DNA of 32,000 bases from Chloroflexota bacterium (lineage in GTDB: Bacteria; Chloroflexota; Dehalococcoidia; JACQUA01). Made by a program: the position numbers and the translations under genes. Shown here one piece after another: positions 241-29,594 of the stretch. The DNA lies in NCBI GenBank assembly GCA_016210565.1, contig JACQUA010000037.1, positions 1 to 32,000 of the forward strand, written 5' to 3'. The notes under the pieces are model-generated. The model was not told where the DNA came from. It made no database searches and saw only the letters and a list, made by a program, of their open reading frames with translations. Position 1 is the first letter of the stretch. The number at the start of each line of letters is the position of its first letter.

Positions 241-254
241 ATGGTGTAACGATT

Positions 255-10000: not shown

Positions 10001-11034
10001 GCGACGGGACGACCAGCTCGACAAAGAACCCGGTCAAGACCTATAGCAGCTCCGGCAACTACGCGGTGACGCTGACGGTGACCAATCCGGCTGGGAGCAG
10101 TTCGGCCACGGCGGTCAAGCGGGTGTACAGCATGCCTTCGGCGAACTTCACGGTCTCGGCGACCGGGGCCAACCCGGGGGGGGTGCTTTATTTCACCGAC
10201 CAGTCCAGCGGGAACGTTACCGGATGGTCATGGAGCTTCGGGGACGGGACGGGGAGTTCGTCCCAAAACCCGTCCAAGAGCTACGCCTCGACGGGCAACT
10301 ACAGCGTATCACTGACGGCCTCCAACCTGGCTGGCAGCAACACGCTTAGCCGGACGGGCTACGTCACGGTGACTTCTTCAGCCCTGAGTCTTACGGCGGA
10401 GACGGCCCTGGTACCGGACGTGTCCGGCGGGTACGCCGTCATCCGCGCCCGGATCAACCGGCTCAAAAACGGGGCAGAGGTCTTTGCCATCGGCGACGGG
10501 ATAGGGTCCTATGATGCCTATGTGACATACGTTGCCGCCGGGGTGACGGTGGTGGGGGTGGACATTGAAGCGCCCTTTGGCAGCCCCACGGTCACCGCCG
10601 GCACCGGGAGGACGGATTTCAACGCGTCGCAGGCGGGTGGGTCGCCGGCGCCGATGCTGGACGTGGCCCGGTTGAGGGTGCGGCTGCCGGGGAGCAGCGA
10701 ATTCCCCTATACCGTGACGCTGAATTTCAATAGCATCGCCAGGGTGAGCGGTGGTGGGACGGTAGAGCAGGCGGGTCCTGCCGGGGCCGTGTTTCGCAGG
10801 GGCGACGCCAATGGCAACGGGGTTGTGGACATGACCGATGCCCTGTTCATTGCCCAGTACCGGGTGGGCATCCGCGGCCTGGGTACCGACGCGCTGAGCG
10901 TTAACCCGGTCAGCGCTGCCAGCGTGAAGCCGGATGATGATGGGACCGGGGACAAGATCGACATGAATGACGCTCTGTTCATCGCCCAGTTCCGGGTGGG
11001 CATCCGGAATGCTTCTTTTCAGTGGACAGCGTGA
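7003..11034 (+). CDS. Secreted subtilisin-like (S8) serine protease with six PKD repeats, a cohesin-like module and a C-terminal dockerin
   Basis: Signal peptide MKQSIRLVSLACAVFVLFSFFPPLLDHAVA/QG. Catalytic triad contexts VAVLDSGLD, HGTHVAGTA and GTSMAAPHAAG. Six PKD repeats of 80-83 aa (W.W.FGDG..SS.QNP..Y...GNYTVTLTA.N.AGS). Two dockerin Ca-binding segments: GDANGNGVVDMTDALFIAQYRVG and DDDGTGDKIDMNDALFIAQFRVG. Confidence 0.95.
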   Translation: MKQSIRLVSLACAVFVLFSFFPPLLDHAVAQGPVAPSKISSRLDMQLKEKAVYIARGGRMQPEEVTLPQLIGRPLEEASRQKVFIHSAERPGPAQLAELRAMGIAVYPDSWIPPVGRHPTGFFYAESPVDQIQVLAARDYVSRVETAEMASKPLNDLAAQATGANQVWNLGYRGAGVTVAVLDSGLDTNHLDFPVPVVKKDYSAYPVVDETVANTVTGHGTHVAGTAVGRGTRSGGTYKGAAPEASLVFIKIGRDSDSAAPSAGEVAAIRDAVDLYGARVITMSYGSWSDYHDGSGSVAQAVDYAVSRGAVYFGSAGNSANDGEHYSGTVSAGGTTGFVQVNATNTSGTSATNTTVLSFNMVWFDGPGIRNDLVLEYYDSAFQLLASTNGTQSQGSRGTESEVSRMNGWLPYLPSLATSTWYVRVRNNSATDQLFHLYYDDYYNSSSAVRVTFQTPDPFYTLSSPAEADGAIAVGAYVTRKIWTDYQGGMWQSSETVGTIASFSSRGPRVDGGAPGAPGKPNLVAPGSRIVSARDAVVYPWPNTNYNRYVIDNDGQFLNGSGPADYYLMQGTSMAAPHAAGIAALLLSKNPSLTPAQVRTYLESTATDKGDPGRDNTYGWGLINALAAINQVPAAVPPVAGFTRVLNPANGVAPVTANFTDTSTNSPTSWSWNFGDGSGSSSQNPSKTYSTPGNYTVTLTAGNIAGSSSASQTVNIYSIPVAGFTRTLNPANGVAPASATFTDSSTGNVTTWSWSFGDGTGSSSQNAVKIYSAGGNYTVTLTASNPAGSRSTSQIVSVYGAPVAGFSKSASIGLVPLTVNFADTSSGNVTGWSWNFGDGAGSSSQNPSRTYASSGNYTVTLTATNPAGSNSTSQAIAVYNLPVAGFTKSLSPGNGVAPVTVSFTDTSTGTPVTWSWDFGDGTGSSSQNPVKIYSAAGNHTVTLTVTNPPGGVGSVSQAVSVYSMPVAGFTENVSSGIAPLTVNFTDTSAGNIVSWLWSFGDGTTSSTKNPVKTYSSSGNYAVTLTVTNPAGSSSATAVKRVYSMPSANFTVSATGANPGGVLYFTDQSSGNVTGWSWSFGDGTGSSSQNPSKSYASTGNYSVSLTASNLAGSNTLSRTGYVTVTSSALSLTAETALVPDVSGGYAVIRARINRLKNGAEVFAIGDGIGSYDAYVTYVAAGVTVVGVDIEAPFGSPTVTAGTGRTDFNASQAGGSPAPMLDVARLRVRLPGSSEFPYTVTLNFNSIARVSGGGTVEQAGPAGAVFRRGDANGNGVVDMTDALFIAQYRVGIRGLGTDALSVNPVSAASVKPDDDGTGDKIDMNDALFIAQFRVGIRNASFQWTA
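8911..10374 (+). repeat. Six tandem 240-249 bp coding repeats (PKD domains) inside the protease gene
   Basis: Repeat starts (V/S of the VAGFT motif) are at 8917, 9163, 9409, 9649, 9898 and 10138. The similarity is recognisable at DNA level (e.g. TGGTCCTGGAACTTCGGCGATGGC variants). Confidence 0.9.
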
Positions 11035-12463: not shown

Positions 12464-13990
12464 ATGGTCGAGAGGAACATCACGAGCCTGAGAGGCGCCC
12501 TGGACTATTTGAATTCCATCGGGGAACTATCTGTGGTGAAGGGAGAGGTGAGCCCTATCCTGGAGATTTCGGGCATCCAGAAGGCCCTGGAAAACGGGCC
12601 AACCCTGTTGTTCGAGAACATTCAGGGCTATCCCTGGGTCAGGGATGTGGGGAACATCTTCTCCCGCCGGGAGAGGGTAGCCAAACTCTTTGGCGCGGAT
12701 GATTACAAGCAGGTCAAATTCAAGTGCCAGGAGGCAATCCGCCATCCGCTGCCGGTGAAAGAGGTCACCGAGGCGCCTTGCCAGGAAGTGGTCATCGACC
12801 GGGACATAGATGTCATGGGGACCCTGCCCATATTGAAACATACCGAAAGGGACGGCGCCAGGATTCTGGGCGGGGGCAACACGTTGATCAGCGGCAAGTT
12901 CTTCCGGGGCGGCACACACATTTCTTTCAACCGGATGAGTTTTCGGGGAAAGGACTGGGGGACCATCTCTTTCGGCTCCGGCAATCACGCGGAATGGGTA
13001 ACCTACATCGAGCACCGTTCGGAGACGATTCCGGTGACCATCAACATCGGCAATCCGCCGGCGGTGACCGCCGCCGCGGCAGCCGGTTTCCTCCATCCCA
13101 TTGTGCCCATCGGCGCCGACGAGCTGGGGTTTTCGGGCGCGCTCCAGGGGTCGCCGGTGGAACTGGTTAAGGCGAAGACCGTGGACGCTTATGCCATCGC
13201 CCAGGCGGAATGGGTTATCGAGGGCTGGGTGAACAGCAAGGAGCGGGCCTGGGAAACCGAAGAGGCGGAGAAACTGGGTCGGATCGGGGTGGCGCCCTTT
13301 TTCCCGGAGTGGACGGGATACCTGGGAAGGGCCTACCGTCTACTGAAGTTCCACGTCACCGCCATCACGCACCGGCGTAACCGTCCCATCTTCTTCTCCC
13401 CCCTGGCCAATGGTTTCGAGACTGACATCGGCGGATCGCTGTTCCGTGAAGCCTGCTTCCTGGAACTGGCCGACCGCATGAGGCCCGGGCTGGTCCAGGA
13501 CGTCAATACGTTCGAAGGGGTGGCGGGGTGGGCGGGGCACGTGGTCTTCCAGGTGAAGAAAGCGCGGCGGGCCGATGAAGGCCACCAGAGGAACCTTCTG
13601 AGCGCGGCGCTGGCGGCGGCCCAGGGGCAGCGTCTGGTGATAGTGGTGGACGAGGATGTGGACATCTACAGCCCGGAGGACGTGCTCTGGGCTTTGACCA
13701 CCCGGCTGAATCCCGGCACGGGCCTCGTGCGCATAGCGGCGGGCGGCATGGGACAGGCGCTGATGCCGATGGAAAGATCAGGGATCGCCGTTCAGTCCAG
13801 CGAAGAGATCCGGCACGAAGGCGGCCTGGGTTTGGACGCTACCGTTCCCTTTGACGGCAAATGGAATTTCGAGAGGGCCAAACATCCGGGAGACAAGGTC
13901 GACCTGAAGAGATGGTTTACGGCTGAGGAGCTCGCCCGGATCAGGGAACAGCAGAGTCCCTATGCCCGGCTGATGGCGGTGAAGGGGTAG
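12464..13990 (+). CDS. UbiD-family (prFMN-dependent) decarboxylase/carboxylase, divergent subgroup, paralog 1
   Basis: 508 aa with a good SD (AAGGAG, 6 nt upstream). UbiD N-terminus LRGALDYLNSIGELSVVKGEVSPILEISGIQKALENGPTLLFENIQGYP. Motifs NRMSFR, GNH, GADELGF and AEWVIEG. Has APFFPEWTGY in place of the canonical E-G-P-F-G-E-x-T-G-Y. Confidence 0.9.
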   Translation: MVERNITSLRGALDYLNSIGELSVVKGEVSPILEISGIQKALENGPTLLFENIQGYPWVRDVGNIFSRRERVAKLFGADDYKQVKFKCQEAIRHPLPVKEVTEAPCQEVVIDRDIDVMGTLPILKHTERDGARILGGGNTLISGKFFRGGTHISFNRMSFRGKDWGTISFGSGNHAEWVTYIEHRSETIPVTINIGNPPAVTAAAAAGFLHPIVPIGADELGFSGALQGSPVELVKAKTVDAYAIAQAEWVIEGWVNSKERAWETEEAEKLGRIGVAPFFPEWTGYLGRAYRLLKFHVTAITHRRNRPIFFSPLANGFETDIGGSLFREACFLELADRMRPGLVQDVNTFEGVAGWAGHVVFQVKKARRADEGHQRNLLSAALAAAQGQRLVIVVDEDVDIYSPEDVLWALTTRLNPGTGLVRIAAGGMGQALMPMERSGIAVQSSEEIRHEGGLGLDATVPFDGKWNFERAKHPGDKVDLKRWFTAEELARIREQQSPYARLMAVKG

Positions 13991-14126
13991 GGGGCGAATA
14001 ATCCCGTAGCGGCAGGACTTGCCCCTGACGGGGCAGGGCGAGGATGGGTGGTCCGCCGCCGCGGCGATGTCGGCAGGGCGCGGTGACCTCAGCCGACAGG
14101 CTGGAAAGCCTGTCGTACCGGGGGAG

Positions 14127-14156
14127 TTGACGGGGCCAGCCGAAATCCTGTATAAA
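14127..14156 (+). promoter_or_regulatory. Candidate sigma-70 promoter upstream of ligase 1 (TTGACG-18 nt-TATAAA)
   Basis: Hexamers at 14127-14132 and 14151-14156, about 65 nt upstream of ATG 14222. Pattern match only. Confidence 0.3.
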
Positions 14157-14221
14157 TTACCAGTTACGCGACCCCTTCTGGAAACCAGCATCGGAGGGAT
14201 TCGACGAAGGAGAATTTCTAA

Positions 14222-15871
14222 ATGGCGATTCCGGCGCGGTACACTCCACAGATGATGGAGGAATACCTGAAGACTGGCCAGTGGAACCCCGTTCCCTGGC
14301 CGGAGGTCTGGGACAATAACGCCAGGGATTTCCCGAACCATGAGGCTATTTGCGATGCCAGGACCCGCTTGACCTGGGGCCAGGCGAAAGAGTGGATCGA
14401 CCGGTTCGCTCTGGGGTTTCTGGAGATGGGTTTCAAAAGAGACGAGGTCATGGTTATCCAGCTACCCAACTCGGCGGAGCTGGCCCTCCTCCGCCTCGCC
14501 TGTGAGAAAGCAGGAATTCTTTGCGCTCCCGTTCTGCGCACCCTGCGGCACAAAGAGATGGAGTACATCCTCAGCTTCACCGGCGCCCGGGGTATCATCA
14601 TCCCGCTGGAGTTCCGCGGTTTCAATTATCTTCAGATGGTACAGGAGATCCGTCCCGTCCTGCCTGGTCTGAAAGACGTCTTCGTCGCCGGGGATGTGGC
14701 GCCCGCCGGGTGCGTCTCGATCAAAGAGATGCTGCAGAAACCCCTGGAAAAGAAATATCCCCCAGGCTATTTGAAGAAGTTCACCTATGATGCCAGGGAG
14801 ACTTCCTGGATCAGCCACACCAGCGGCAGCACGGGCTTTCCCAAGTTTGTCCAGATACCAGCGGTGGCACGGCGCAGCCTCTGCGAGGGCCAGGTGCATG
14901 TCCTGAAACTGACTCAGAAGGACGTCGTCGGGGCCCTTTCCCCGGCCACCGGCGGGCCGAACATCATCACCTACTGGGCGGCGGCGATGGTGGGCGCCAG
15001 GGTGGTCATGATGGAGCATTTCGAGGCCGAAGAGGCGATGCAGCTTATCCAGAAAGAGAAAATAAGCGTGGCAGGGCTGGTCCCCACCATGCTGACCGGC
15101 ATACTGCGTCATCCCAACCGGCACAAGTATGACTTGAGCTCGATGCGGGCCTGGTACTGCGCTGCCGGGACCCCGCCATTTCAATTGGTCAAGGAGCTTG
15201 AGGAGACGGTGGGCGGGAAGGTGATCCAGGCCTATGGAGCCGTGGATTACGGTTGCGCCACCAATGCCGGGCTGGACGACTCGATGGAAGTCAGGGTGCT
15301 CACGGCCGGCAAGCCGTGCTGGGGCGCCCGCCTGAAGATAGTCGATGACAATGGCAACGAGTTGCCCCGGGGGGAGGTGGGAGAGGTGTGGGGGACCGGC
15401 CCCGGAGGCGTCGGCGGCTATTACAAAGATGAAAAGGCTACCTGGGAAGCCTGGACCAGGGACAACTGGTACCGCACCGGGGACCTGGGAAAGATCAATG
15501 AAGACGGCAACCTGCTCATCGTGGGGCGGAAAAAGGAGATGATCAAACGGGGCGGACAGAACATCTACCCTATCGAGGTAGAGAAATTGCTGATAACCCA
15601 TCCCAGGGTGAACGACGTGGCTGTGGTGGGCATGCCGGACCCGGAGATGCTGGAAAGGGCCTGCGCCTACGTGGTCCCCAAGCCGGGGCAGAAATTTCTC
15701 TTTGACGATATGTCGGAGTTCTTGAAAGAAAAGGGCCTGGCGCCTTTCAAAATCCCGGAGAGGCTGGAAATCCTGGAAAAGATGCCCATGCTGGCGGCCG
15801 ACCAGAAGATCGACAAGAAGGTCCTGAAGGCGGACATTGTCGAAAAGCTAAAAGCCGAGGGTAAGGTCTAG
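14222..15871 (+). CDS. AMP-forming acyl/aryl-CoA ligase (ANL superfamily, EntE/DhbE-like aryl-acid activating type), copy 1
   Basis: 549 aa with SD GAAGGAG. Motifs: A3 HTSGSTGFPKFV, A5 YGAVDYG, A7 YRTGDLG, A8 GRKKEMIKRGGQNIYPIEVE, and a C-terminal lysine region DQKIDKKVL. The N-terminus (Y..G.W......W ... VIQLPN..E) resembles 2,3-dihydroxybenzoate-AMP ligase-type enzymes. Confidence 0.9.
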   Translation: MAIPARYTPQMMEEYLKTGQWNPVPWPEVWDNNARDFPNHEAICDARTRLTWGQAKEWIDRFALGFLEMGFKRDEVMVIQLPNSAELALLRLACEKAGILCAPVLRTLRHKEMEYILSFTGARGIIIPLEFRGFNYLQMVQEIRPVLPGLKDVFVAGDVAPAGCVSIKEMLQKPLEKKYPPGYLKKFTYDARETSWISHTSGSTGFPKFVQIPAVARRSLCEGQVHVLKLTQKDVVGALSPATGGPNIITYWAAAMVGARVVMMEHFEAEEAMQLIQKEKISVAGLVPTMLTGILRHPNRHKYDLSSMRAWYCAAGTPPFQLVKELEETVGGKVIQAYGAVDYGCATNAGLDDSMEVRVLTAGKPCWGARLKIVDDNGNELPRGEVGEVWGTGPGGVGGYYKDEKATWEAWTRDNWYRTGDLGKINEDGNLLIVGRKKEMIKRGGQNIYPIEVEKLLITHPRVNDVAVVGMPDPEMLERACAYVVPKPGQKFLFDDMSEFLKEKGLAPFKIPERLEILEKMPMLAADQKIDKKVLKADIVEKLKAEGKV

Positions 15872-15873
15872 CT

Positions 15874-15894
15874 TTGCAAGGGGTCCCCTTGCAA
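15874..15894. promoter_or_regulatory. Perfect 21-bp palindrome TTGCAAGGGG-T-CCCCTTGCAA between ligase 1 and ubiX
   Basis: 10+1+10 perfect dyad read directly. Begins 3 nt after the ligase stop and ends 20 nt before the ubiX ATG. No T-run follows, so it is not a canonical intrinsic terminator. It could be an operator or an RNA hairpin. Confidence 0.5.
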
Positions 15895-15913
15895 ATGTGA
15901 AGGGCTGACAAGA

Positions 15914-16477
15914 ATGGTACTCATCATCGCCATCACCGGCGCCTCCGGCGCCATCTATGGAATCAGGTTGCTGGAAGTGCTCAAACAGGCCGGGGACGTG
16001 GAAACCCACCTGGTCATTTCCGAGGCCGCGGCGCGTACCATCGAGTACGAGACCACCTACACCGTGGCCGGGGTCATGAAACTGGCGCACCACTGCTATG
16101 ACAACAAAGATGTCGGCGCGGCGCTGGCCAGCGGGTCCTTCCGCCGCGACGGCATGGTGGTCATGCCGTGCTCGGTCAAAACCATGGGGGCCCTGGCCCA
16201 TTCTTATTCGGAGAACCTGATTATCCGCGCCGGAGACGTGACTTTGAAGGAGCGGAAAAGGCTGGTGCTGGTGGTCAGGGAAACGCCGCTGCATCTCGGC
16301 CACTTGAGAAACATGGTGCAGCTTACGGAAATGGGCGCCGTGATCCTGCCGCCGGTGACCAATTTCTACAGCAAGCCGAAAACCATCGATGACCTGATCA
16401 ACCATATCGTCGGCCGCACGCTCGACCTTTTTGGCATCGACCATTCCCTGGTGAAGCGGTGGAAGGGGGAGGGGTAG
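15914..16477 (+). CDS. ubiX: Flavin prenyltransferase UbiX (prFMN synthase)
   Basis: 187 aa. Has MVLIIAITGASGAIYGIRLLEVL, MVVMPCSVKTMGALAHSYSENLIIRAGDVTLKERKRLVLVVRETPLH and GAVILPPVTNFY, all typical UbiX/Pad1 signatures. Confidence 0.95.
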   Translation: MVLIIAITGASGAIYGIRLLEVLKQAGDVETHLVISEAAARTIEYETTYTVAGVMKLAHHCYDNKDVGAALASGSFRRDGMVVMPCSVKTMGALAHSYSENLIIRAGDVTLKERKRLVLVVRETPLHLGHLRNMVQLTEMGAVILPPVTNFYSKPKTIDDLINHIVGRTLDLFGIDHSLVKRWKGEG

Positions 16478-16590
16478 TGATGTGGGGTTTGAAGGTTCAT
16501 AAGGTTATAAGGTTGGAAGGCTCGAAAGTTTGGCGGTTGAAAAGAGTAGAGGGTGATAGCTGACAACTGACCTCTGATAGCTACCCCAGA
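16478..16590 (+). repeat. Low-complexity short-repeat tract directly after the ubiX stop (AAGGTT-type units, then TGATAGC-type units)
   Basis: Sequence: TGATGTGGGGTTTGAAGGTTCATAAGGTTATAAGGTTGGAAGGCTCGAAAGTTTGGCGGTTGAAAAGAGTAGAGGGTGATAGCTGACAACTGACCTCTGATAGCTAC. It shares AAGGTT units with 4694-4742 and 5419-5457. Confidence 0.8.
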
Positions 16591-16624
16591 GGCTACCCCG
16601 GAGAACTCAAATAAGGAGGAGCGA

Positions 16625-17365
16625 ATGGCTACCGACTACGAGAACCTGCTCGACCTGGTGAGACGGAGGCGGAGCACCAGGCGCTACAAGCCGGACCCGG
16701 TGGCGGACGGGGACATCGAAAAGATAATCGAAGTGGCGCGGTGGGCTATGTCCGGGGCCAACGCCCAGCCCTGGGAATTCGTGGTGGTGAAAGACGGGAA
16801 TACCAGGGCAGAGATATTCGAACTGTACAAGCTACACCGGACGCAGACAGACGTGTTCAACAAGCTGCTGCCCCCGGAACTGAAGCATCCGGTCACGGGT
16901 ACGCTCAAGGCCGGCCAGCCTTCTTTCAGAGACGCCCCGGTGTTTATAGTGGTCTGCGGCGACAGCCGGACTCTGCTGGCCACCAGCCTGTCTGCGGAGA
17001 TAATGGGCTACGAACGCACAACGTATCATTTCAATCTGGCTAATGCCACGATGCTGGTCCACCTGGCGGCTGCTTCCTTGGGTCTGGGGACGCAGTGGAT
17101 CAGCACCAGCCCGATCTGGGAAGGGAAGCTGAAGACCCTTCTTGGCATACCCGACTGGTTTACGGTCCCGCATCTGGCGCCCCTGGGCTACCGCGATTAC
17201 ACGCCGCCACCGCCGTACCGGCGCGAGGTGTCCGAAATACTCCACCGGGAAGAATACGAACAGTCAAAATTCCGGACGGATGAGCAGGTCCTGGAGTACA
17301 TCGCGCTGGTAAGAAATCGGGCCAGGGCGGCGTACTACATTCCGCCCGAAAAAGGGAAGAAGTGA
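16625..17365 (+). CDS. Nitroreductase-family FMN flavoprotein
   Basis: 246 aa with a strong SD (AAGGAGGAG). Has RRSTRRYKPDPV...IIEVARWAMSGANAQPWEFVVVKD, typical of the nitroreductase fold. Confidence 0.85.
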   Translation: MATDYENLLDLVRRRRSTRRYKPDPVADGDIEKIIEVARWAMSGANAQPWEFVVVKDGNTRAEIFELYKLHRTQTDVFNKLLPPELKHPVTGTLKAGQPSFRDAPVFIVVCGDSRTLLATSLSAEIMGYERTTYHFNLANATMLVHLAAASLGLGTQWISTSPIWEGKLKTLLGIPDWFTVPHLAPLGYRDYTPPPPYRREVSEILHREEYEQSKFRTDEQVLEYIALVRNRARAAYYIPPEKGKK

Positions 17366-17396
17366 CAGAGAAATGAGATAGAGATAGAGAAGCCGC

Positions 17397-17842
17397 GTAG
17401 GGTGGGTTAAGCACAGTGGGGCCTGGGGAAGATGGGTGGCTGGGCGAACCCACCGTTCGACGCCAATTCCAATAACCAACCCCTGACTGAATCGGGGGCC
17501 AAAAGACTCCAACAACGAAATTCCAAATGAGAAAACCGACGGAGCCCTTTTGGGGGCTAGACCATTGGGATTTTCATATTGCTCCGAAAATGTCACCCTG
17601 AGCGCAGTCGAAGGGTCTTTCGTCCGGCGCCCCACCTCGAAAGATTCTTCGACTATCCCGATTCTATCGGGACTGCGCTCGCTTCGCACAGAATGACATT
17701 TTCATCGTTCATTGTCCCGACTCGTCGGGATGGCCGATTGTTGTTTGGAATTTGGCTTTTGGGATTTGGAATTTCGCGTCGTTGGTGGGTTCGCGCAACC
17801 ACCCCGGTCAGCACCGCCCCATTTGCGCTTAACCCACCCTAC
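17397..17842. repeat. 446-bp nested palindromic composite (MITE-like) with no coding capacity
   Basis: Family A copy (+) at 17397-17454 and inverted family A copy at 17784-17842. Just inside these are inverted AATTCCAA-type low-complexity blocks (about 17457-17528 and 17738-17781). At the centre is a 108-bp family B hairpin element (17591-17698, TGTCACCCTGAGCGCAGTCGAAGGG...CGCTCGCTTCGCACAGAATGACA) plus a GTCCCGA hairpin (17714-17731). Confidence 0.8.
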
Positions 17843-17885
17843 CCGTATTGTGTCCTTTATTGTTAGCGGTCGAAAGAGTGACGGC

Positions 17886-18518
17886 ATGGCAACGGGTAAT
17901 ATTTTGACGAGACTGGAGGACGTGGCATCCCCGGCGCATACGGCGCTGGTGGTCATCGACGTCCAGAATGACTTCTGCCACCCGGAGGGCGCCATCGGGC
18001 GCAGCGGCAACGACCTGGGCCTTGTCCAGCAGATACTGCCGGGACTGTCCGCGTTCCTGTTGGGCGCGCGCCGGCTGGGGGTGAAGCCCGTCTTTATCCG
18101 GAACGTTTACAGCGCCCGCTATGTTCCGGTGTCCATGAGGGAGGCCCTGGAACGCAGGGGGTCTAAACCGAACTGCCTGCCCGGTAGCTGGGGCGCCGGT
18201 TTTGTGGAAAGTTGCGGCCCGGAAAAGGATGAGCTGGTCTTCGAAAAGCACTGTTACGATGCCACTACCAACAGGCGTTTTACCAGCTTCCTGAAGTCAG
18301 GAAACTATAGGACCGTGGTGTACTGCGGGGTGATGACCAACGTTTGCGTGGAGACCACCGCCAGGTCGACGGCCATGGCTGGATACTATCTGGTCGTGGT
18401 GGAAGACTGCGTCGCGAGTTACGACCGCGAAAGCCACCGGGTTACGCTCCGGAACCTGGACAAATACTTCGGGAGGGTGGTAAAGTCGGCCGACCTGCTG
18501 GCTGGCTGGGCCAGATGA
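17886..18518 (+). CDS. Isochorismatase-like (cysteine hydrolase) family protein
   Basis: From ATG 17886 (210 aa). Has ALVVIDVQNDFCHPEG and the catalytic Cys context GVMTNVCVETTARSTA. ORF-track residues 1-58 are translated repeats. Confidence 0.85.
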   Translation: MATGNILTRLEDVASPAHTALVVIDVQNDFCHPEGAIGRSGNDLGLVQQILPGLSAFLLGARRLGVKPVFIRNVYSARYVPVSMREALERRGSKPNCLPGSWGAGFVESCGPEKDELVFEKHCYDATTNRRFTSFLKSGNYRTVVYCGVMTNVCVETTARSTAMAGYYLVVVEDCVASYDRESHRVTLRNLDKYFGRVVKSADLLAGWAR

Positions 18519-18547
18519 TGGCGGCAAACGATGAAGCTACGCGAAAG

Positions 18548-18556
18548 TGCTATAAT
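18548..18556 (+). promoter_or_regulatory. Candidate extended -10 promoter element TGcTATAAT upstream of UbiD paralog 2
   Basis: Exact TGnTATAAT match with no convincing -35. It lies about 150 nt upstream of the proposed start at 18707. Pattern match only. Confidence 0.3.
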
Positions 18557-18580
18557 ACAGTCTCCTTAGCCCAGGATTCC

Positions 18581-18647
18581 GTAGGGGCAGACCCGTCCCG
18601 ACTTGTCGGGACCCGCGTGGCGGGCGAACACCGGGGTTCGCCCCTAC
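18581..18647. repeat. 67-bp REP-like element with terminal inverted repeats GTAGGGGC...GCCCCTAC and an internal GTCCCGACTTGTCGGGAC hairpin
   Basis: Read directly. It explains the non-homologous N-terminal extension of ORF 18344..20224. Confidence 0.8.
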
Positions 18648-18706
18648 GGAGCGATTCGCAACGTGCGGTCTCTGGTCCGGGACCGAAACCAGAAGGGATA
18701 ACAGAT

Positions 18707-20224
18707 TTGTTGAAACCTCAGCTTAAGAACCTGCGGAGCACCGTACCCTATTTGAAGAGACTCGGTGACTTGATGGTGGTGAGAGGGGCGGTGGACCCCA
18801 TCTATGAAATCGCAGGCATCCAGAAAGCCCTGGACGGTGGGCCGGCCCTTCTTTTCGAAAACATCAAGGGCTATCCCGGGGTGCGCGATATCGGTAATGT
18901 GTTCAGCCAGAAGTCCCGGGCGCCTTTGCTGTTTGCGGTGGACGGCCCCCGGGAATTCAAGTTGCTCTGCCGGCAGGCGATCGCTAGGCCGCTGCGGCCC
19001 CGGGTGGTGAAGCAGGCCCCGAGCCAGGAAGTGGTCGTCACCGAGAAGCTGGATGTCCCGGCCACGTTACCCATCCTCAAGCATACCGACAGGGACGGCG
19101 GGCGCATCCTGGGGAGCGGGGTTATCCTGGTGGGCGGGGAGTTCTTCAAAGGGGGAAGGGAACTATCCTTCAAACGCATGAACTTCCGTGGCAAGGACTG
19201 GGGCAGCATCAAGGCCCTCCGGGGCACGCACTTCGGCGACCTGGCCCTGAAGGAGCACCGCGGCGCAACGATTCCCCTGACGGTGAATATCGCCCCTCCT
19301 CCGGCGGTGCTGGTTGTGGCCGGAGGCGGCTCACTCCATGCCATCGTGCCCGCCGGCGCCGATGAGCTGGCCATCGCCGGCGGACTTCAGGACTCGCCGG
19401 TCGCCCTGGTCAAAGCCCGGACCGTGGATGCCTACGCCATCGCCGAAGCCGAGTGGGTGATCGAAGGATATGTGGATACAAGGGAGAGAGTCTGGGAGAC
19501 CGACGAGGCGGAGAAAACGGGGAAGTTCGGCGCCGCGCCCTTCTTCCCGGAATGGGCCGGCTACATGGGCTGGGCGGTGCGCACGCTCAAGTTCCACGCC
19601 ACGGCCATTACCCATCGCCGGGACGGGCCTATCTTTTTCAGTCCGTTGGCCCGCTCTTTCGAAGGGGATAACCTCGTGGCCATGCTCCGGGAGGCCTGTT
19701 TTTGGGAGCTGGCGGAGCGGGAGTATCCGGGATTCGTCCAGGATGTGAACATCCTCCACGGAGTCACCGCTTCCAGCGGCGTCGTTTTCCAGGTGAGGAA
19801 GGGTGGCGCTGAAGAAGGGTTCCAGCGCAATCTTATCGGCAGCGCCTTTGCCGCCTCGCCGACCATGCGAATGGTGGTGGTGGTGGACGAGGATATCGAC
19901 ATATACAGCGCCGAAGATGTGCTGTGGGCGATCACCACCCGGTGTCAACCGGGTAGCGGGGTCATCAGAGGCCCGGGCGGGCGGAGGATTGTGATGTTCC
20001 CTTCGGACACCCTGGGCGCCACCGGAGAGGATGGGGACTTCCTGGTGGAAGCCGGTATCGGCTTTGATGCTACGGTACCCCTGCCGGCAAAGGTCCACTT
20101 CGAGAGACCCCATTTCCCCGTGGACAAAGTCGATCTTAAACGCTGGTTCACCGAGAGGGACCTCGTCAAAGCCAGGTTGAAACAGAGTGAATACGGTAAG
20201 GTACTGGGCCTCAACGGGTGGTAA
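18707..20224 (+). CDS. UbiD-family protein, divergent subgroup, paralog 2
   Basis: Homology to paralog 1 begins at LRSTVPYLKRLGDLMVVRGAVDPIYEIAGIQKALDGGPALLFENIKGYP. The start is placed at TTG 18707 (or 18710) with GAAGGG about 10 nt upstream, giving about 505 aa against 508 and 511 aa for paralogs 1 and 3. Motifs KRMNFR, GTH, GADELAI and APFFPEWAGY. Confidence 0.88.
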   Translation: MLKPQLKNLRSTVPYLKRLGDLMVVRGAVDPIYEIAGIQKALDGGPALLFENIKGYPGVRDIGNVFSQKSRAPLLFAVDGPREFKLLCRQAIARPLRPRVVKQAPSQEVVVTEKLDVPATLPILKHTDRDGGRILGSGVILVGGEFFKGGRELSFKRMNFRGKDWGSIKALRGTHFGDLALKEHRGATIPLTVNIAPPPAVLVVAGGGSLHAIVPAGADELAIAGGLQDSPVALVKARTVDAYAIAEAEWVIEGYVDTRERVWETDEAEKTGKFGAAPFFPEWAGYMGWAVRTLKFHATAITHRRDGPIFFSPLARSFEGDNLVAMLREACFWELAEREYPGFVQDVNILHGVTASSGVVFQVRKGGAEEGFQRNLIGSAFAASPTMRMVVVVDEDIDIYSAEDVLWAITTRCQPGSGVIRGPGGRRIVMFPSDTLGATGEDGDFLVEAGIGFDATVPLPAKVHFERPHFPVDKVDLKRWFTERDLVKARLKQSEYGKVLGLNGW

Positions 20225-20249
20225 AAGAAGATCAAAGGCCGAAATGGAA

Positions 20250-20338
20250 TGTCACTGCGAGCGAAGCGAAGGAATCCCCCAGTTGGCTCTACATCCGGGG
20301 GATTGCTTCGTCCCGAATAAATCGGGACTCGCAATGAC
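20250..20338. repeat. 89-bp hairpin element, family C (TGTCACTGCGAGCGAAGCGAAGGAATC...GACTCGCAATGAC)
   Basis: Terminal inverted repeats with internal hairpins CCCCCAG..GGGGG and GTCCCGAATAAATCGGGAC. The core is related to the 41-bp units at 31330-31487. Confidence 0.75.
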
Positions 20339-20364
20339 GGTCAATAACTCAAGGAACTCATCCT

Positions 20365-22008
20365 ATGGCTAAGCCAGTGCGCTTTACCCCTGAAATGATA
20401 AAGCACTACCAGAGCCTGGGAATCTGGACCTCTGACAGGCTTTCCGAATACTGGGACAAGAACGCCGCGGAACGTCCGGACAGGGAAGCCGTGGCAGACT
20501 CGCGGGGCAGGCTGACCTGGGCGCAGGCAAAGCAGTGGATCGACCGCATGGCCCTGGGACTGCTGGGACTCGGCTTTACCAGGGATGACATGCTGGCGGT
20601 GCAACTCCCTAACTGTGTCGAGCTCATGCTGCTCCGGATAGCCACGGAAAAGGTCTGTGTGCTGTGCCTGCCCGTCCTGAGGACCTTCCGCCAACAGGAA
20701 ATGGAATATATTCTGAAACGGACCGGGGCGGTGGGGCTGGTCGTCCCGTGGCGCTATCGCGGCTTCGATTATTTCCAGATGGTACAGGAAATAAGACCGG
20801 CTCTGCCGAACCTGAAACACGTGATCTCAGCCTGGGACGACATCCCTCCGGGTACGATTCCGCTAAAGGGCATCGTCGAGAAGCCTTCGGAGCGGGACTA
20901 CCCCGGCGACTATCTGAAGAAGACCACCTGCCCCCCCGTGGAGTACTCTCTGGTATTGACCACCAGCGGAACGACGGGATTCCCCAAGTTCGTGGAACAC
21001 CCGGTGTGCAGCCGCATCTATATCGGGAAGGTCTACGCCAAGGGCTGGAAGATCACCGAGAGCGACGTGATCGGCGTACTGGGTCCGGCCGCCACAGGCC
21101 CCAACCACGCCGCTTACTGGTCGGCCCCCTTGGTGGGCGCCCGGTGCGTCATGCTGGAGCATTTCGAAGCGGAGGCCGCCCTGCGACTGATTGAAAAGGA
21201 AAGAATAACGTTTACCGGTTTTGTCCCGGCGCAGCTCGCCCTTCTGCTGCGGCACCCCAATTTCGACCGCTACGACCTTAGCTCGCTGAGGTGCGTTGTG
21301 TGCACCGGCGCTCCTTTGAGCTACAAGCTGGGCGTTGAGGCTGAGGCGAAGCTGAAATGTCCCATCGTCCAGTCGTACGGCTCGGTAGACGCCGGCGGCT
21401 CGATGATGCACTACCCCGAAGACTCCCAGGAAGTCCGCCTTCTCACGGCAGGTCGCCCCATGCCGGGTGTGGAAATGAAAATAGTTGATGACTCCGGCCG
21501 GGAGGCGCCCAGGGGGGCGGTGGGCGAGGTCTGGGTCCGCGGTCCAACGTTCGTTTCCGGCTACTACAAAGACCCGGAAGCTACCTCCCATGGCTGGACG
21601 CCCGATGGCTGGTTCCAGATGGGCGATCTCGGGAAGTGGAATGACGGCAACATCATGATTGTCGGACGCAAGAAAGACATGATCATCCGGGGCGGCCAGA
21701 ATGTCTATCCCGTGGAGATTGAGAACTTGCTGGTACTGCATCCCAAAGTGGCCGGCGTCGCCGTCGTGGGTATGCCCGACCCGGTCATGGGAGAACGGGC
21801 CTGTGCCTTCGTCGTGCCCAGGCCGGGCGCGGAGTTCACTTTTGAGGAGATGGTCTCATTCCTGAAGGAAAAGAACATCGCCATGTTCAAAATTCCGGAG
21901 CGCCTCGAACTGCTGGAGCGTTTCCCGATGGTGGCCGCCGACCAGAAGGTAGACAAGAAGGTCTTGCAGCAAATCATCCGCGACAAGCTGGCCGGCGAGG
22001 GGAAGTAG
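20365..22008 (+). CDS. AMP-forming acyl/aryl-CoA ligase (ANL superfamily), copy 2, paralog of 14222..15871
   Basis: 547 aa, colinear with copy 1 and identical at roughly half of positions by eye. Motifs TTSGTTGFPKFV, YGSVDAG, FQMGDLG, GRKKDMIIRGGQNVYPVEIE and DQKVDKKVL. Confidence 0.9.
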   Translation: MAKPVRFTPEMIKHYQSLGIWTSDRLSEYWDKNAAERPDREAVADSRGRLTWAQAKQWIDRMALGLLGLGFTRDDMLAVQLPNCVELMLLRIATEKVCVLCLPVLRTFRQQEMEYILKRTGAVGLVVPWRYRGFDYFQMVQEIRPALPNLKHVISAWDDIPPGTIPLKGIVEKPSERDYPGDYLKKTTCPPVEYSLVLTTSGTTGFPKFVEHPVCSRIYIGKVYAKGWKITESDVIGVLGPAATGPNHAAYWSAPLVGARCVMLEHFEAEAALRLIEKERITFTGFVPAQLALLLRHPNFDRYDLSSLRCVVCTGAPLSYKLGVEAEAKLKCPIVQSYGSVDAGGSMMHYPEDSQEVRLLTAGRPMPGVEMKIVDDSGREAPRGAVGEVWVRGPTFVSGYYKDPEATSHGWTPDGWFQMGDLGKWNDGNIMIVGRKKDMIIRGGQNVYPVEIENLLVLHPKVAGVAVVGMPDPVMGERACAFVVPRPGAEFTFEEMVSFLKEKNIAMFKIPERLELLERFPMVAADQKVDKKVLQQIIRDKLAGEGK

Positions 22009-22060
22009 CCAGTAGTGAGTAGCGAGTAGTGAGTAGGCAGTAGCCAGTAGCCAGTAGCAC
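22004..22060 (+). repeat. About eight 7-bp tandem units (AGTAGNN: AGTAGCC/AGTAGTG/AGTAGCG/AGTAGGC) overlapping the ligase 2 stop codon
   Basis: Read directly. TAG occurs in every unit, and the gene's stop TAG (22006-22008) is the first of them. Confidence 0.9.
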
Positions 22061-22230
22061 AGACGTCCCGCCTGTGACAGCGATCAGTAGTAGGTCGGGC
22101 TGGCTGCGCGAACCCACCGAACCCGGTACGACGGGCTTCCAGCCCGTCGGCTTCGGTCTCGTCCCTGCGGGCGGGACGCAGGGAATCGCTACGGGCAGGA
22201 CGCCCGTAATACTTTTAGTTAGGAGAAGAA

Positions 22231-23766
22231 ATGCCCTCTCGAAACAAGAACGAAGCTATCAGGAGCTTGAGGAGCACAGTCGACTTGCTGGAGCAGAGTG
22301 GGGAGTTGCTGAGAATAAAGGGTGAGGTGGACCCTATCTATGAAATATCGGGTATTCAAATGGCCCTGGAGTCCGGCCCGGCCATACTTTTCGAAAACAT
22401 CAAGGGCTATCCCCACGCCAGGGACATCGGCAATGTTTTCGCCCGGCGGGACAGGATCGCGAAGATGTTCGGGACCGACGACCACCGCCAGTTGAAGTTC
22501 AAGTGCATCGATGCCATGACCAACCCCATAAAGCCCAGGGTTGTGGAGCGCGCCGCCTGCCAGGAAGTGGTCATCAAAGAAAACATCGATGTCCTCAACT
22601 ATTTGCCCGTGCTGAAGCATACCGTCAAGGACGGGGGACGCATCATCGGCGGCGGCAACATGTTCATCAGCGGCAAGTACTTCAAGGGCGGCACCCACGT
22701 GTCCTTCAACCGGACCCATTTCCAGGGGAAGGACTGGGCCAGCATGCAGGCCTTTGTCGGCACCCACCTCGGGGACAGCTTCTTTGTCCACCGGGGCGAA
22801 CAGGTGCCGATGACCATCAACATCGGCAATCCGCCGGCGGTGACTTTCGTCGCCGGCGGCACGGTGATGCACACCCTGCTCCCCCGGGGGACCGACAAGC
22901 TGGGCATCGCCGGGGCGTTGCAGGGCTACCCGGTAGACATTGTGCCGTGCAAGACGGTGGATGCTTTCGCCATTGCCGAGGCGGAATGGGTGATCGAAGG
23001 CTACATGGACACGACTGAGCGGGTCTGGGAAAGCCCCGAAGCCAACAAGGTGGAAGCCTACGGCGCAGCGCCCTTCTTCCCGGAGTGGCCGGGTTACATG
23101 GGACGGGCCATGAAGACATTCAAGTTTCAGGCTACGGCCATTACCCACCGGAAAGACCGCCCCATCTTCTTCAGCCCGCTGGCCCATTCCTATGAGGGGG
23201 ATATTCTGTGCGCCATGCTCCGGGAGGCCTGTTTGTACGAGCTGGTTGACCGGCTGATACCGGGTCTGGTGAAAGATGTCTACATCCTGGACGGCGTCGG
23301 GCCGCGCGCCCACGTCATCTTCCAGGTGGAGAAAAGAAGGCCTGGCGACGAGGGCTACTCGAAAAACATCATCACCGCCGCTTTTGGCGCCACCCAGGGC
23401 CTCTACCTGGTCGTGGTGGTCGACGAGGACGTCGATATCTACAGCGCGGATGACGTGATGTGGGCCATCATCACCAGGTTGAACCCCGAGACGGGCATTC
23501 TGCGTGGCACCGTGGGTGGGCGGGGCTCGCCGATGATGCCCCTGGAGAGAGTCGGCTTGAGCGGCAAGGTGGTGGGTGAGTTCCATTATCCGGGCGGCCT
23601 CGGTCTGGACTGCACCGTTCCTTTTGGCGAAAAGTGGGCCTTCGACCGGGGGAGATACCCGGTGGACCGCGTCGATTTGAAGAGATGGCTAACGGACGAG
23701 CAGATTGCGGCCGTCAAGGCCGTCCAGCCTGACTTTGCGAAACTGATGGCAAAGAGGGGTGGTTAG
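22231..23766 (+). CDS. UbiD-family protein, divergent subgroup, paralog 3 (key catalytic/metal positions substituted)
   Basis: 511 aa with SD AGGAG. Colinear with paralogs 1 and 2 (LRSTVDLLEQSGELLRIKGEVDPIYEISGIQMALESGPAILFENIKGYP). Motifs NRTHFQ, GTH, GTDKLGI and APFFPEWPGY. Confidence 0.88.
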   Translation: MPSRNKNEAIRSLRSTVDLLEQSGELLRIKGEVDPIYEISGIQMALESGPAILFENIKGYPHARDIGNVFARRDRIAKMFGTDDHRQLKFKCIDAMTNPIKPRVVERAACQEVVIKENIDVLNYLPVLKHTVKDGGRIIGGGNMFISGKYFKGGTHVSFNRTHFQGKDWASMQAFVGTHLGDSFFVHRGEQVPMTINIGNPPAVTFVAGGTVMHTLLPRGTDKLGIAGALQGYPVDIVPCKTVDAFAIAEAEWVIEGYMDTTERVWESPEANKVEAYGAAPFFPEWPGYMGRAMKTFKFQATAITHRKDRPIFFSPLAHSYEGDILCAMLREACLYELVDRLIPGLVKDVYILDGVGPRAHVIFQVEKRRPGDEGYSKNIITAAFGATQGLYLVVVVDEDVDIYSADDVMWAIITRLNPETGILRGTVGGRGSPMMPLERVGLSGKVVGEFHYPGGLGLDCTVPFGEKWAFDRGRYPVDRVDLKRWLTDEQIAAVKAVQPDFAKLMAKRGG

Positions 23767-24066: not shown

Positions 24067-25683
24067 ATGGCTTACTACAAAGACCTCAGGGAACACATCA
24101 AGGCATTGGAGGCGGCGGGGAAGCTGGTCCGGATAAAGAGACCGATCATCAAGGAAACTGAACTTCATCCCCTGGTCCGGTGGCAGTTCCGGGGATTGCC
24201 GGAAGAGGAAAGGAAGGCCTTCCTGTTCGAAAACGTCGTCGACGTCAAGGGGAAGAAATATGACATGCCGGTGCTGGTGGCCTCGCATGCCGCCTCTCGC
24301 CAGGTTTACGCCATCGGGATGATGTGCAAGCCGGAAGAGATCATGGACCGGTGGTCCAACGCCGAGCTTCACCAGGTGGACCCGGTCACGGTATGCACGG
24401 GGCCGGTCTGCGAAGAAATATTCAAAGGAGACAGGCTGATGGAGCGCGGGTGTCTGGAGGAGTTTCCCATACCTATCTCCACACCAGGCATGGACAACGC
24501 GCCCTACCTGACGGCGGCCAACTGGGTAACGAAAGACCCCGAGACCGGCATCCCCAATGTCGGCAACTACCGCGCCATGTTGAAAAGCCCGACGCGCCTG
24601 GGCATCTGCTCCCTGGCCACGCAGCATCTCAGGGAACACTGGGACCGCTGCCGGGCGAAGGGGATTCCTTTGCAGGCGGCTATTGTCATGGGTGCTTCCC
24701 CCGCGGTAGGATACGTGGCCACGGCCAAGTTGCCCTACGGGACAAACGAGTTCAGAGTGGCCGGAGGGATTGCCGGAGCGCCACTGGAGATGGTCAAGTG
24801 CCAGACGGTCGACCTGGAAGTTCCCGCCACTTCTGAAATCGTCATCGAGGGAATAATGCCCACCGACTTCCAGGAGCGGGAAGCGCCGTTCGGCGAATAC
24901 ACAGGTTACATGGGCATGGAAGCGATCAACCCGGTATTGAATGTGACCTGCGTCATGCACCGGAAGAACCCCATTTACAACGCTTTCCTCAGCCAGTTCC
25001 CGCCCAGCGAAAGCAGCAAGCTGCGCCAGATTGGCACTGAGGCCGTCTTCTACAAGTTCTTGAAGCATGACTGCAACATTCCCGGCATCCTCGGCGTGTC
25101 CATCCATGAAAGCAGCGGCGCCGCCGAGTACATTGTCATCAGCATGAAGAAGACCCATCCCTCCCAGGCCTGGCAGGCTCTGAACGGCGCCGCGGCGTTC
25201 ATACCGAACGTTGGTAAGATCATCATTGTCGTGGATGAAGACATCGACCCGGCGGACCCGGACTCGGTGAACTGGGCGCTGAGCTTCCGCATGCAACCCC
25301 ACCGCGATTTGAGGGTCAGTCATGGCAAGGTTTCGGGGCTGGACCCGTCCTCCGCTCCCATGACCGATCCCAACCGTCGCTATCCGGGCGTCCAGGGGGC
25401 GTCGGTCCTTTTGCTCGACGCGACGCGAAAATGGCCCTATCCGCCGACTTCGCTTCCCAAGAAAGAGTTCATGGAACACGCCCGGAAGATCTGGGAGGAG
25501 GAGGGTCTGCCGAAGCTCACCCCAAAGAAGCCCTGGTTTGGCTATAATCTCGGCTTCTGGAGCACGGAGTATGACGAGGAAGCGCAGCTAGCACTAAAGG
25601 GAGAGTATTTCAAAACAGGGGAAAAGCTGGCCAAACGCCGGATAACGGGGGAGGCAGCCAAGAGCATGGGCGAGGGAGGATAG
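24067..25683 (+). CDS. UbiD-family decarboxylase/carboxylase, canonical type, paralog 4
   Basis: 538 aa with SD GGAGG. Canonical motifs NVGNYR, QH, NEFRVAGG, SEIVIEG and EREAPFGEYTGYMG (the E-x-P-F-G-E-x-T-G-Y signature). Confidence 0.92.
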   Translation: MAYYKDLREHIKALEAAGKLVRIKRPIIKETELHPLVRWQFRGLPEEERKAFLFENVVDVKGKKYDMPVLVASHAASRQVYAIGMMCKPEEIMDRWSNAELHQVDPVTVCTGPVCEEIFKGDRLMERGCLEEFPIPISTPGMDNAPYLTAANWVTKDPETGIPNVGNYRAMLKSPTRLGICSLATQHLREHWDRCRAKGIPLQAAIVMGASPAVGYVATAKLPYGTNEFRVAGGIAGAPLEMVKCQTVDLEVPATSEIVIEGIMPTDFQEREAPFGEYTGYMGMEAINPVLNVTCVMHRKNPIYNAFLSQFPPSESSKLRQIGTEAVFYKFLKHDCNIPGILGVSIHESSGAAEYIVISMKKTHPSQAWQALNGAAAFIPNVGKIIIVVDEDIDPADPDSVNWALSFRMQPHRDLRVSHGKVSGLDPSSAPMTDPNRRYPGVQGASVLLLDATRKWPYPPTSLPKKEFMEHARKIWEEEGLPKLTPKKPWFGYNLGFWSTEYDEEAQLALKGEYFKTGEKLAKRRITGEAAKSMGEGG

Positions 25684-29592: not shown

Positions 29593-29594
29593 GG

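Follow-up and report, generated by a model that had tools for sequence, protein, structure and literature searches.

Three UbiD paralogs of the phthaloyl-CoA decarboxylase clade in a Dehalococcoidia gene cluster probably keep the catalytic Arg-Glu-Glu network, and one carries lysine at the cation-bridging position

Four paralogs of the UbiD family, here called P1 to P4, are encoded within a 32,000-nucleotide stretch of DNA (positions 1 to 32,000 of contig JACQUA010000037.1; hereafter the window) from a Dehalococcoidia metagenome-assembled genome (MAG). An initial annotation, which relied on an alignment made by hand, had described P1, P2, and P3 as a divergent subgroup with a PFFPEW motif, had listed several metal-binding and catalytic residues as lost from them, and had proposed a hetero-oligomer of catalytic and degenerate subunits. 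Our analysis places the three proteins in the clade of phthaloyl-CoA decarboxylase (PCD) and indicates that all of them are most likely working enzymes. With a probability of about 0.6, we read them as separate, probably homo-oligomeric enzymes that depend on prenylated FMN (prFMN), with Lys223 of P3 taking over the role of a cation. The motifs and the subgroup are real, the claimed residue losses appear mostly to dissolve on realignment, and the glutamate-to-lysine substitution at the cation-bridging position of P3 remains the interesting part.

The paralogs and the codons discussed below are listed here, with signature residues covering the metal and catalytic positions. Reference positions follow Fdc1, in which the metal ligands are Asn168, His191, and Glu233.

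12464 to 13990, forward strand: P1, UbiD paralog 1, 508 residues, PCD-type ("type A"); PDB match 8oz5/8pmk with E 1.2e-114; signature H152, R157, H175, E220, E264, E282, the same as in solved PCD
18710 to 20224, forward strand: P2, UbiD paralog 2, about 504 residues, PCD-type ("type B"); signature E151, K155, R156, H174, E219, E263, E281
19160 to 19174, forward strand: codons E151 to K155 of P2, with E151 at the Asn168-equivalent metal-ligand position and K155 at position -1
22231 to 23766, forward strand: P3, UbiD paralog 3, 511 residues, PCD-type ("type C"); signature H156, R161, Q165, H179, K223, E267, E285
22711 to 22713, forward strand: codon R161 of P3, by alignment the true Arg173 equivalent, kept
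22723 to 22725, forward strand: codon Q165 of P3, previously taken for a Gln at the catalytic Arg
22897 to 22899, forward strand: codon K223 of P3 at the metal-bridging Glu position (Glu233 of Fdc1 and AroY), by ungapped alignment to AroY GYNELG, P4 GTNEF, and PCD GCDEIG
24067 to 25683, forward strand: P4, UbiD paralog 4, 538 residues, canonical; TIGR00148 at 257.6 bits against a cut-off of 244.85; signature N164, R169, H187, E228, E272, E277

All four open reading frames are UbiD proteins, as had been annotated, and have the three-domain architecture of the family, with PF20695, PF01977, and PF20696 over their gathering cut-offs in every case. The strings on which the annotation had drawn are present (NRMSFR, GADEL, and RIGVAPFFPEW in P1; KRMNFR, GADEL, and KFGAAPFFPEW in P2; NRTHFQ, GTDKL, and AYGAAPFFPEW in P3; NVGNYR, QH, NEF, and EREAPFGEYTGY in P4), and P1 to P3 do form a subgroup, with 54–56% mutual identity compared with 28% identity to P4. 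Searches with phmmer matched P1 (E 1.2e-114) and P3 (E ~1e-104) to solved PCD (8OZ5, 8P02, 8PMK) over ~495 aligned residues; the next solved relative of both is the 3,4-dihydroxybenzoate decarboxylase AroY (5O3M, 5NY5), at E ~1e-50. The PCD sequence itself contains GRFHFHPEWAGYMG, NRMNFR, and GCDEIG. The PFFPEW subgroup is the PCD clade, a family that is already known, with cryo-EM structures public since 2024. For P3, an AlphaFold2 model built on an 86-sequence alignment (predicted local distance difference test score of 92.8, predicted template modeling score of 0.92) returned 8oz5_A as the top Foldseek match, with a template modeling (TM) score of 0.96 and a root mean square deviation of 1.6 Å over 509 columns; AroY and HmfF matched at TM ~0.8, and at least 50 UbiD structures were matched.

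PCD (also PhtDa; Thauera chlorobenzoica and Azoarcus sp. PA01) is the best solved relative of P1 to P3. Identity to it is roughly 45–50% or less by estimate, and 35% in the Foldseek structural alignment of P3. Shared with PCD are an N-R motif, an invariant glutamate within W/Y-E-T, an x-F-x-P-E-W motif (FHFHPEW in PCD), and a 13-residue insertion between the two catalytic glutamates; in P1 the signature H/R/H/D-E/E is identical as well. In its longer form, x-F-x-P-E-W-x-G-Y, the motif is strongly conserved among 192 clade sequences, PCD included: in P1 numbering, P281 and E282 are each found in 191 and W283 in 173. AroY is similar in having P-E-F for F-G-E, a 7-residue insertion between the two glutamates, and a Gln four residues after the Arg, like P3. 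It differs in acting on a free acid, in keeping the metal Glu, and in having no ligase partner.

The alignment register was tested with MAFFT (on the four paralogs and on 199 sequences), with hhalign, and with phmmer of P3 against AroY. The 199-sequence alignment and tree hold the 192 PCD-clade relatives plus outgroups, and hhalign compared a profile of 134 PCD-clade sequences with 76 canonical UbiDs from this genome. All three methods agree that the canonical N-V-G-N-Y-R pairs with H152-I-S-F-N-R157 of P1, not with N156-R-M-S-F-R161, so that the site lies 4 residues upstream of the earlier placement of Asn168 and Arg173. As a control of register, canonical sequences read N..R..H..E..E and AroY reads D166/R171/H189/E233/E289 at the same columns, mapping one-to-one onto the paralogs. 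With the earlier columns P4 would read Y..K rather than N..R; that register is wrong, and the columns were corrected. AroY Glu289 (5NY5 numbering), which belongs to M-P-E-F and pairs with the Glu of P-E-W in the paralogs, has been identified as the analogue of Fdc1 Glu282 (PMC5656893). Arg188 of that paper fits AroY numbering; its "Arg181" falls on a Ser, with the closest arginines at 171 and 177, and we treat it as a numbering slip.

It is from this shift of the hand alignment that the reported losses arise. The equivalent of Arg173 is R157 in P1, R156 in P2, and R161 in P3, and it is invariant in 199 of 199 sequences. The glutamine of P3 that had been assigned to the catalytic Arg is Q165, at position +4, where the 199 sequences vary (R in 180, K in 9, Q in 7, S in 2, N in 1) and where active AroY has Gln and canonical UbiDs have Lys. 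Similarly, the lysine of P2 that had been placed at the Mn-binding Asn is K155, at position -1 and adjacent to the catalytic Arg, and the Asn168 position is occupied by E151. For P1, the annotation was right that the metal Glu (GADEL, E220) and the Arg are kept, the latter being R157, and mistaken in taking the Asn of NRMSFR as the metal Asn, because His152 stands at that position. The acid-base Glu (the Glu282 equivalent) is present in all four paralogs, as had been stated, and in 198 of the 199 sequences of the tree alignment. A displaced hand alignment, for which the annotation had itself allowed, is what sequence and profile alignment find at the Asn168, Arg173, and Glu277 positions.

The ionic network of UbiD enzymes has been described as R-Xn-E-X4-(E/D), comprising Arg173, Glu277, and Glu282 in Fdc1 (PMC5818171). 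The first of these glutamates had been called absent from P1 to P3, with one residue inserted. The insertion is of 13 residues: from VIEG to the acid-base Glu there are 27 residues in the PCD clade versus 14 in canonical UbiDs. The Glu of W-E-T/S, invariant in 192 of 192 clade sequences, shares its column with the first Glu of canonical E-x-P-F-G-E and with a Glu of AroY. It corresponds to E264 in P1, E263 in P2, and E267 in P3, and it is located before the insertion. In the P3 model, E267 follows a strand (253–266) and precedes a short helix (269–274) and a strand with F-F-P-E (281–284), a layout that matches an insertion looped out between the two glutamates. Because hhalign and MAFFT place the loop gaps differently, the assignment of the W-E-T/S Glu as the Glu277 equivalent is probable rather than certain, and it draws on the invariance of the residue together with the MAFFT and AroY alignments. 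The spacing in P1 to P3 is E-X17-E, not E-X4-E; the literal network motif therefore fails, but the residues are present, and by these alignments all three proteins keep the complete Arg-Glu-Glu network.

As judged from the aligned columns, the paralogs differ solely at the metal/phosphate site, where two cations bridge the prFMN phosphate in UbiD enzymes (PMC8988006). Over eight signature columns (-5, -1, Arg, +4, the His191 equivalent, Asp, the Glu233 equivalent, and the Glu282 equivalent), PCD and P1 read H-N-R-R-H-D-E-E, P2 reads E-K-R-R-H-D-E-E, P3 reads H-N-R-Q-H-D-K-E, and P4 reads N-Y-R-K-H-N-E-E. The metal-ligand sets are thus N/H/E in P4 (canonical), H/H/E in P1 (as in PCD), E/H/E in P2, and H/H/K in P3; P1 to P3 do not have the literal Asn/His/Glu motif, and active PCD also has H/H/E. 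P2 departs from PCD in having Glu and Lys at -5 and -1 rather than His and Asn, and in P3 the metal-bridging Glu is replaced by Lys and position +4 is Gln. The annotation had placed this lysine correctly: it aligns without gaps to AroY GYNELG, HmfF GVDELE, and P4 GTNEF, flanked by conserved Gly and Ala-Gly. Its fallback suggestion of an altered cofactor environment also stands, with His at the Asn168 position clade-wide, Glu there in P2, and Lys at Glu233 in P3. PCD is described as Fe2+/K+-dependent (PMC8379154, PMC13040137), and its sensitivity to oxygen has been attributed to release of prFMN upon oxidation of the Fe(II) (PMC8379154, citing Mergelsberg 2017). The clade-wide replacement of Asn by His would give a 2-His-1-carboxylate set, which would fit the Fe2+ of PCD rather than Mn2+.

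Variation at this site extends across the clade. Positions -5 and -1 covary, as H..N versus E/D..K, and the E/D..K type to which P2 belongs accounts for 45 of the 199 sequences and calls for 9 changes on the tree by parsimony. The first ligand position is occupied by H, N, Q, E, D, C, or T. Further variants (Q-Y-R..H..D-E, Q-Y-R..Q..D-E, and C-K-R..H..D-E) were seen in locus L038 and in the alphaproteobacterial loci L054, L062–L065, and L068–L075. The Gln/Gln/Glu set neighbors alphaproteobacterial Lys-type sequences in the tree, so that there the loss of ligands may precede the Glu-to-Lys change.

Lysine at the Glu233 position is not peculiar to P3. It occurs in 38 of the 199 sequences and requires 7 parsimony changes (~7 origins), and the supported clades made up entirely of Lys-type sequences have 16 (P3 among them), 10, 3, 3, and 3 members. 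The catalytic Arg and both Glu residues are invariant in every one of the 38. The His191 equivalent is lost in 5 of the 7 Lys lineages, and in 13 of 38 Lys-type against 4 of 161 Glu-type sequences, counts that are not phylogenetically independent; this enrichment suggests that, with the lysine in place, the remaining parts of the metal site become dispensable. In three alphaproteobacterial MAGs (L064, L068, and L069; 9.6–15 kb) a Lys-type PCD-like gene that lacks the metal triad (T/Q-Y-R..Q..D-K) adjoins ubiX, and no second UbiD-family gene was found in these loci. P3 and its ortholog in locus L004 of the same genus (88.5% identity, same H-N-R-Q-H-D-K-E) gave a nonsynonymous rate (dN) of 0.072 and a synonymous rate (dS) of 1.62, and P2 and its ortholog L090 in the same-genus genome G001 (80% identity, same E..K) gave a dN of 0.129 and a dS of 1.11; the resulting dN/dS values of ~0.04 and ~0.12, respectively, are rough because dS is near saturation. 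The P3-type lysine is under purifying selection.

The same substitution is found in another branch of the family. An HmfF-like UbiD of this genome (G000:C387:25848-27200, reverse strand, equal to L089:5848-7200), one among 76 canonical UbiD paralogs, has Asn replaced by Gly, His by Pro/Leu, and Glu by Lys, and keeps Arg/Glu/Glu. Its signature, G/S-R-P-K-E-E, is present in 112 of 112 aligned database homologues (at least 45% identity, from several phyla). Many members of this clade carry the JGI label 2,5-furandicarboxylate decarboxylase, and we found no description of the clade in the literature searched. It shares with P3 the Glu233-to-Lys change and the intact Arg/Glu/Glu. It differs from P3 in its branch (~45% identity to HmfF), in the replacement of all three ligands, in its canonical E-G-P-F-G-E loop, and, in this genome, in its neighbor, a type-2 isopentenyl-diphosphate isomerase in place of a ligase. 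The conservation of the clade marks Glu-to-Lys as a stable state within UbiD enzymes. The isomerase gene lies divergent to the HmfF-like gene (L089:7545-8588). Anhydromevalonate-phosphate decarboxylase was considered as an identity for the HmfF-like protein and dropped: the window encodes IspE of the methylerythritol phosphate (MEP) pathway, and the literature search returned nothing with which to test the idea.

The evidence speaks against decay and for Glu-to-Lys as a functional state. With the prFMN phosphate normally held via two cations, the simplest reading would be that the lysine ammonium replaces the charge of a cation. K+-independent pyruvate kinases provide a precedent: a Glu117-to-Lys change at or near the cation site supplies the charge through the lysine ammonium and removes the cation requirement. 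Their fold and chemistry are unrelated to those of P3, and the parallel extends only to the exchange of a cation for lysine. The literature searched yielded no account of Lys recurrently replacing Glu at the position that bridges the cations in UbiD enzymes. A broader proposal is that the recurrent change defines "metal-free" UbiDs, in which lysine rather than Mn2+/Fe2+ with K+/Na+ ties the prFMN phosphate, with several origins in the PCD clade, P3 as an early stage, and fixation in the HmfF-like clade; we put this forward tentatively, as something short of an even chance.

Several points weigh against the proposed role of Lys223 and the functions suggested for P1 to P3. P3 keeps both His residues and may still bind a divalent metal, which would make it a possible intermediate, and Lys223 could serve otherwise, for example by contacting CoA phosphates. 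A single G-to-A transition suffices for Glu-to-Lys, so that recurrence by itself is weaker evidence than it may seem, and support within the FastTree topology is incomplete, with a value of 0.16 for one Lys clade of two members. Both the geometry between Lys223 and the phosphate and the identity of the metal ligands in PCD rest on sequence, not coordinates. Mixed oligomers among paralogs of 56% identity would be compatible with the sequences, and phthalate isomers as substrates of P1 to P3 are a guess from homology.

The first alternative is that P2 and P3 are ordinary metal-dependent PCD-type enzymes whose substitutions tune metal preference or substrate (CoA) binding, with Lys223 contacting another group and a water or side chain completing the site. 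The many ligand combinations of the clade suggest plasticity of the metal site and would allow this, as would the Asp at the first position of active AroY, the two His ligands kept in P3, and the three potential ligands, Glu/His/Glu, of P2. The Lys-type lineages fit it poorly, given that the second ligand is gone in 5 of 7 and that the HmfF-like clade, with all its ligands changed to Gly, Pro, and Lys, retains the catalytic triad and no plausible ligand set. We consider this alternative unlikely. More doubtful still is the view that P3 and the other Lys-types are non-catalytic pseudoenzymes without prFMN that, for example, bind and sequester a labile aryl-CoA or act as a chaperone. It would account for the loss of the carboxylate with which solved UbiDs bridge the two cations and of the other ligands in many Lys-type lineages, and phthaloyl-CoA is indeed very labile, with high levels of the decarboxylase believed to trap it (PMC13040137). 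Strict invariance of Arg and both Glu would not, however, be expected of a protein that only binds, and the strong purifying selection, the large and conserved HmfF-like Lys clade, and the Lys-type genes that stand directly beside ubiX as the only UbiD-family genes found in the three alphaproteobacterial loci all count against it.

Gene context was compared in 80 related loci from Dehalococcoidia, Desulfobacterota, Syntrophales, Methylomirabilota/Rokubacteria, Firmicutes, Alpha- and Betaproteobacteria, and an Amycolatopsis. A single PCD-like gene is present in 77 of them, an AMP-ligase homologue in 34, and UbiX in 13. Type B occurs with its own ligase and with no type A nearby in L007, L014, L020, L066, and L076, and L004 (with a ligase), L005, and L008 each have a type C gene and no other PCD-like gene; these loci without type A span 10–17 kb. 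A second type C gene of the present genome, on contig C233, likewise has its own ligase and no PCD-like neighbor. The PDB entries of PCD hold one PCD sequence as six identical chains. Against the phenylphosphate carboxylase models for the alpha and beta subunits (PpcA/PpcB; TIGR02723 and TIGR02724), P1 to P3 score 58–91 bits, for cut-offs of 565 and 469. P1 and P2 are each paired with a paralogous ligase (55% and 56% identity), resembling the duplication of a two-gene module, and the 55% identity between the two ligases, L1 and L2, points to a duplicated UbiD-plus-ligase module. PpcA/PpcB and other multi-subunit UbiD-type carboxylases resemble the present cluster in that several UbiD paralogs are co-encoded; they differ in that here the paralogs are interleaved with CoA ligases and the variant types occur alone elsewhere. 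No homologues of the small gamma/delta subunits were seen here, where no search was aimed at them. Degenerate subunits are unlikely on this evidence, and three independent aryl-CoA decarboxylases are favored.

The remaining alternative is a hetero-oligomer along the lines of the initial annotation, with P1 as the catalytic subunit and with P2 and P3 as degenerate members that serve structure or regulation, on the model of phenylphosphate carboxylase or of the carboxylases proposed for benzene and naphthalene. In its favor are three paralogs on one strand of a 12-kb cluster with a single ubiX, the missing metal-bridging Glu of P3, and an orthologous multi-paralog arrangement in a related Chloroflexi MAG (P0001 and P0093 on one 22.9-kb contig). 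We hold it to be the least probable of the alternatives, very improbable in view of the complete and invariant Arg/Glu/Glu of P2 and P3, the solitary type B and C genes with ligases of their own, the predominance of single-gene loci, the homomeric PCD entries, and PpcA/PpcB model scores far under the cut-offs.

Open reading frames and a family profile search give the gene order, on the forward strand throughout, as P1-L1-UbiX-nitroreductase-isochorismatase-P2-L2-P3-P4. A CoA-activating enzyme and UbiX encoded alongside the decarboxylase are a hallmark of the PCD clade, as in known phthalate clusters (PMC13040137), and the window has both (P1-L1-UbiX ... P2-L2-P3). The genes that accompany the four paralogs are the following.

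14222 to 15871, forward strand: L1, AMP-forming aryl-acid CoA ligase, 549 residues, partner of P1; 55% identity to L2
15914 to 16477, forward strand: UbiX flavin prenyltransferase, 187 residues; NF004685 at 268 bits against a cut-off of 188
16625 to 17365, forward strand: nitroreductase-family flavoprotein, 246 residues; PF00881, with a weak BluB-like match
~17886 to 18518, forward strand: isochorismatase-family (cysteine) hydrolase, ~210 residues; PF00857, with RutB and biuret-amidohydrolase matches below cut-off
20365 to 22008, forward strand: L2, AMP-forming aryl-acid CoA ligase, 547 residues, assigned from family profiles and solved relatives

We propose that an aryl (di)carboxylic acid, probably ortho-substituted, would be converted to its CoA thioester by L1 or L2, after which a PCD-type enzyme with prFMN supplied by the cluster UbiX would remove a ring carboxyl group. 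The nearest solved relatives of L2 are salicylate-AMP and 2,3-dihydroxybenzoate-AMP ligases, which act on ortho-substituted benzoates and so fit phthalate-like substrates. The use of an AMP-forming ligase, rather than a succinyl-CoA transferase, sets the cluster apart from that of PCD and is shared with sulfate reducers, in which an ATP-dependent ligase works with PCD; the isophthalate system has a PaaK-type ligase, and the terephthalate route is still unsettled (PMC13040137, PMC9516798). The His/His/Glu site of P1 is the PCD arrangement and fits the reported Fe2+/K+ dependence of PCD, and P2 combines a Glu/His/Glu site with the covarying Lys beside the catalytic Arg. In P3, the ammonium group of Lys223 would assume part or all of the charge-bridging by cations, leaving the site less dependent on metal. 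The nitroreductase-family protein may be a flavin reductase, a cofactor helper, or involved in substrate processing.

The start of P2 is most likely the TTG at 18707/18710 and not 18344: a GAAGGGA ribosome-binding site precedes TTG TTG at these positions, and the resulting N terminus is collinear with those of P1 and P3. The frame is open for 120 codons further upstream (18344–18709), across a GC-rich hairpin repeat (~18573–18650) and into the last part of the isochorismatase-like gene, so automatic gene calls may carry a false N-terminal extension. The adjacency of P3 and P4 is also present in locus L004. A promoter and terminator scan of the cluster gave weak consensus matches only, which were not used.

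For annotation, the case illustrates that apparent catalytic losses in divergent UbiD paralogs can stem from aligning motifs by eye. Conserved Lys-types with an intact catalytic triad offer a testable route to metal-independent binding of prFMN. If the proposal is true, Lys-type enzymes would hold their cofactor without redox-labile Fe2+, which could explain their occurrence in lineages that meet oxygen or a shortage of metal, and they would make sturdier scaffolds for biocatalytic carboxylation and decarboxylation. Anaerobic decarboxylation of isophthaloyl-CoA is known from one organism (PMC13040137). The 11 PCD-like genes of this Dehalococcoidia lineage, several of them paired with ligases whose relatives act on aryl acids with an ortho substituent, supply a set of candidate enzymes.

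The MAG that carries the window is a 6.5-Mb Dehalococcoidia assembly, 94% complete with 6.4% contamination. It has ~90 matches to UbiD models, comprising 11 full-length PCD-like genes, 2 fragments, and ~78 canonical genes, and a single UbiX match above cut-off, the cluster gene at 15914–16477. UbiD matches number at least 89 in a 3.5-Mb genome of the same genus and 39 in a 2.2-Mb genome of the same family; most others of the class have none. The UbiD set has thus undergone an extreme expansion specific to the lineage, with one flavin prenyltransferase to serve it. The other PCD-like genes (L081–L088) neighbor genes for hydantoinase/oxoprolinase A, a molybdoenzyme of the xanthine dehydrogenase family, aldehyde:ferredoxin oxidoreductase, a LUD-domain protein, and a glutamate-mutase E-like protein; this company suggests anaerobic breakdown of aromatic compounds or heterocycles, without pointing to a specific substrate.

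Elsewhere in the window, a CTP-dependent (archaeal-type) riboflavin kinase (PF01982; 4830–5246, reverse strand), an enzyme that forms FMN, is encoded 7 kb upstream of the cluster, and the MEP-pathway kinase IspE is encoded at the start of the window (117–1103, forward strand). The two enzymes bear on how FMN and the dimethylallyl unit, the precursors of prFMN, are supplied, and their link to the cluster is putative. Between them and P1, a forward-strand gene (7003–11034) encodes a 1343-residue putative secreted subtilisin-like protease, judged by its translation alone, with ~7 PKD-like repeats bearing a conserved W.F.FGDG..SS..NP motif and a dockerin-like C-terminal repeat pair. Downstream of the cluster, on the reverse strand (28291–31076), are genes for a flavin amine-oxidase-family protein and a B12-binding radical S-adenosylmethionine protein (DUF4070).

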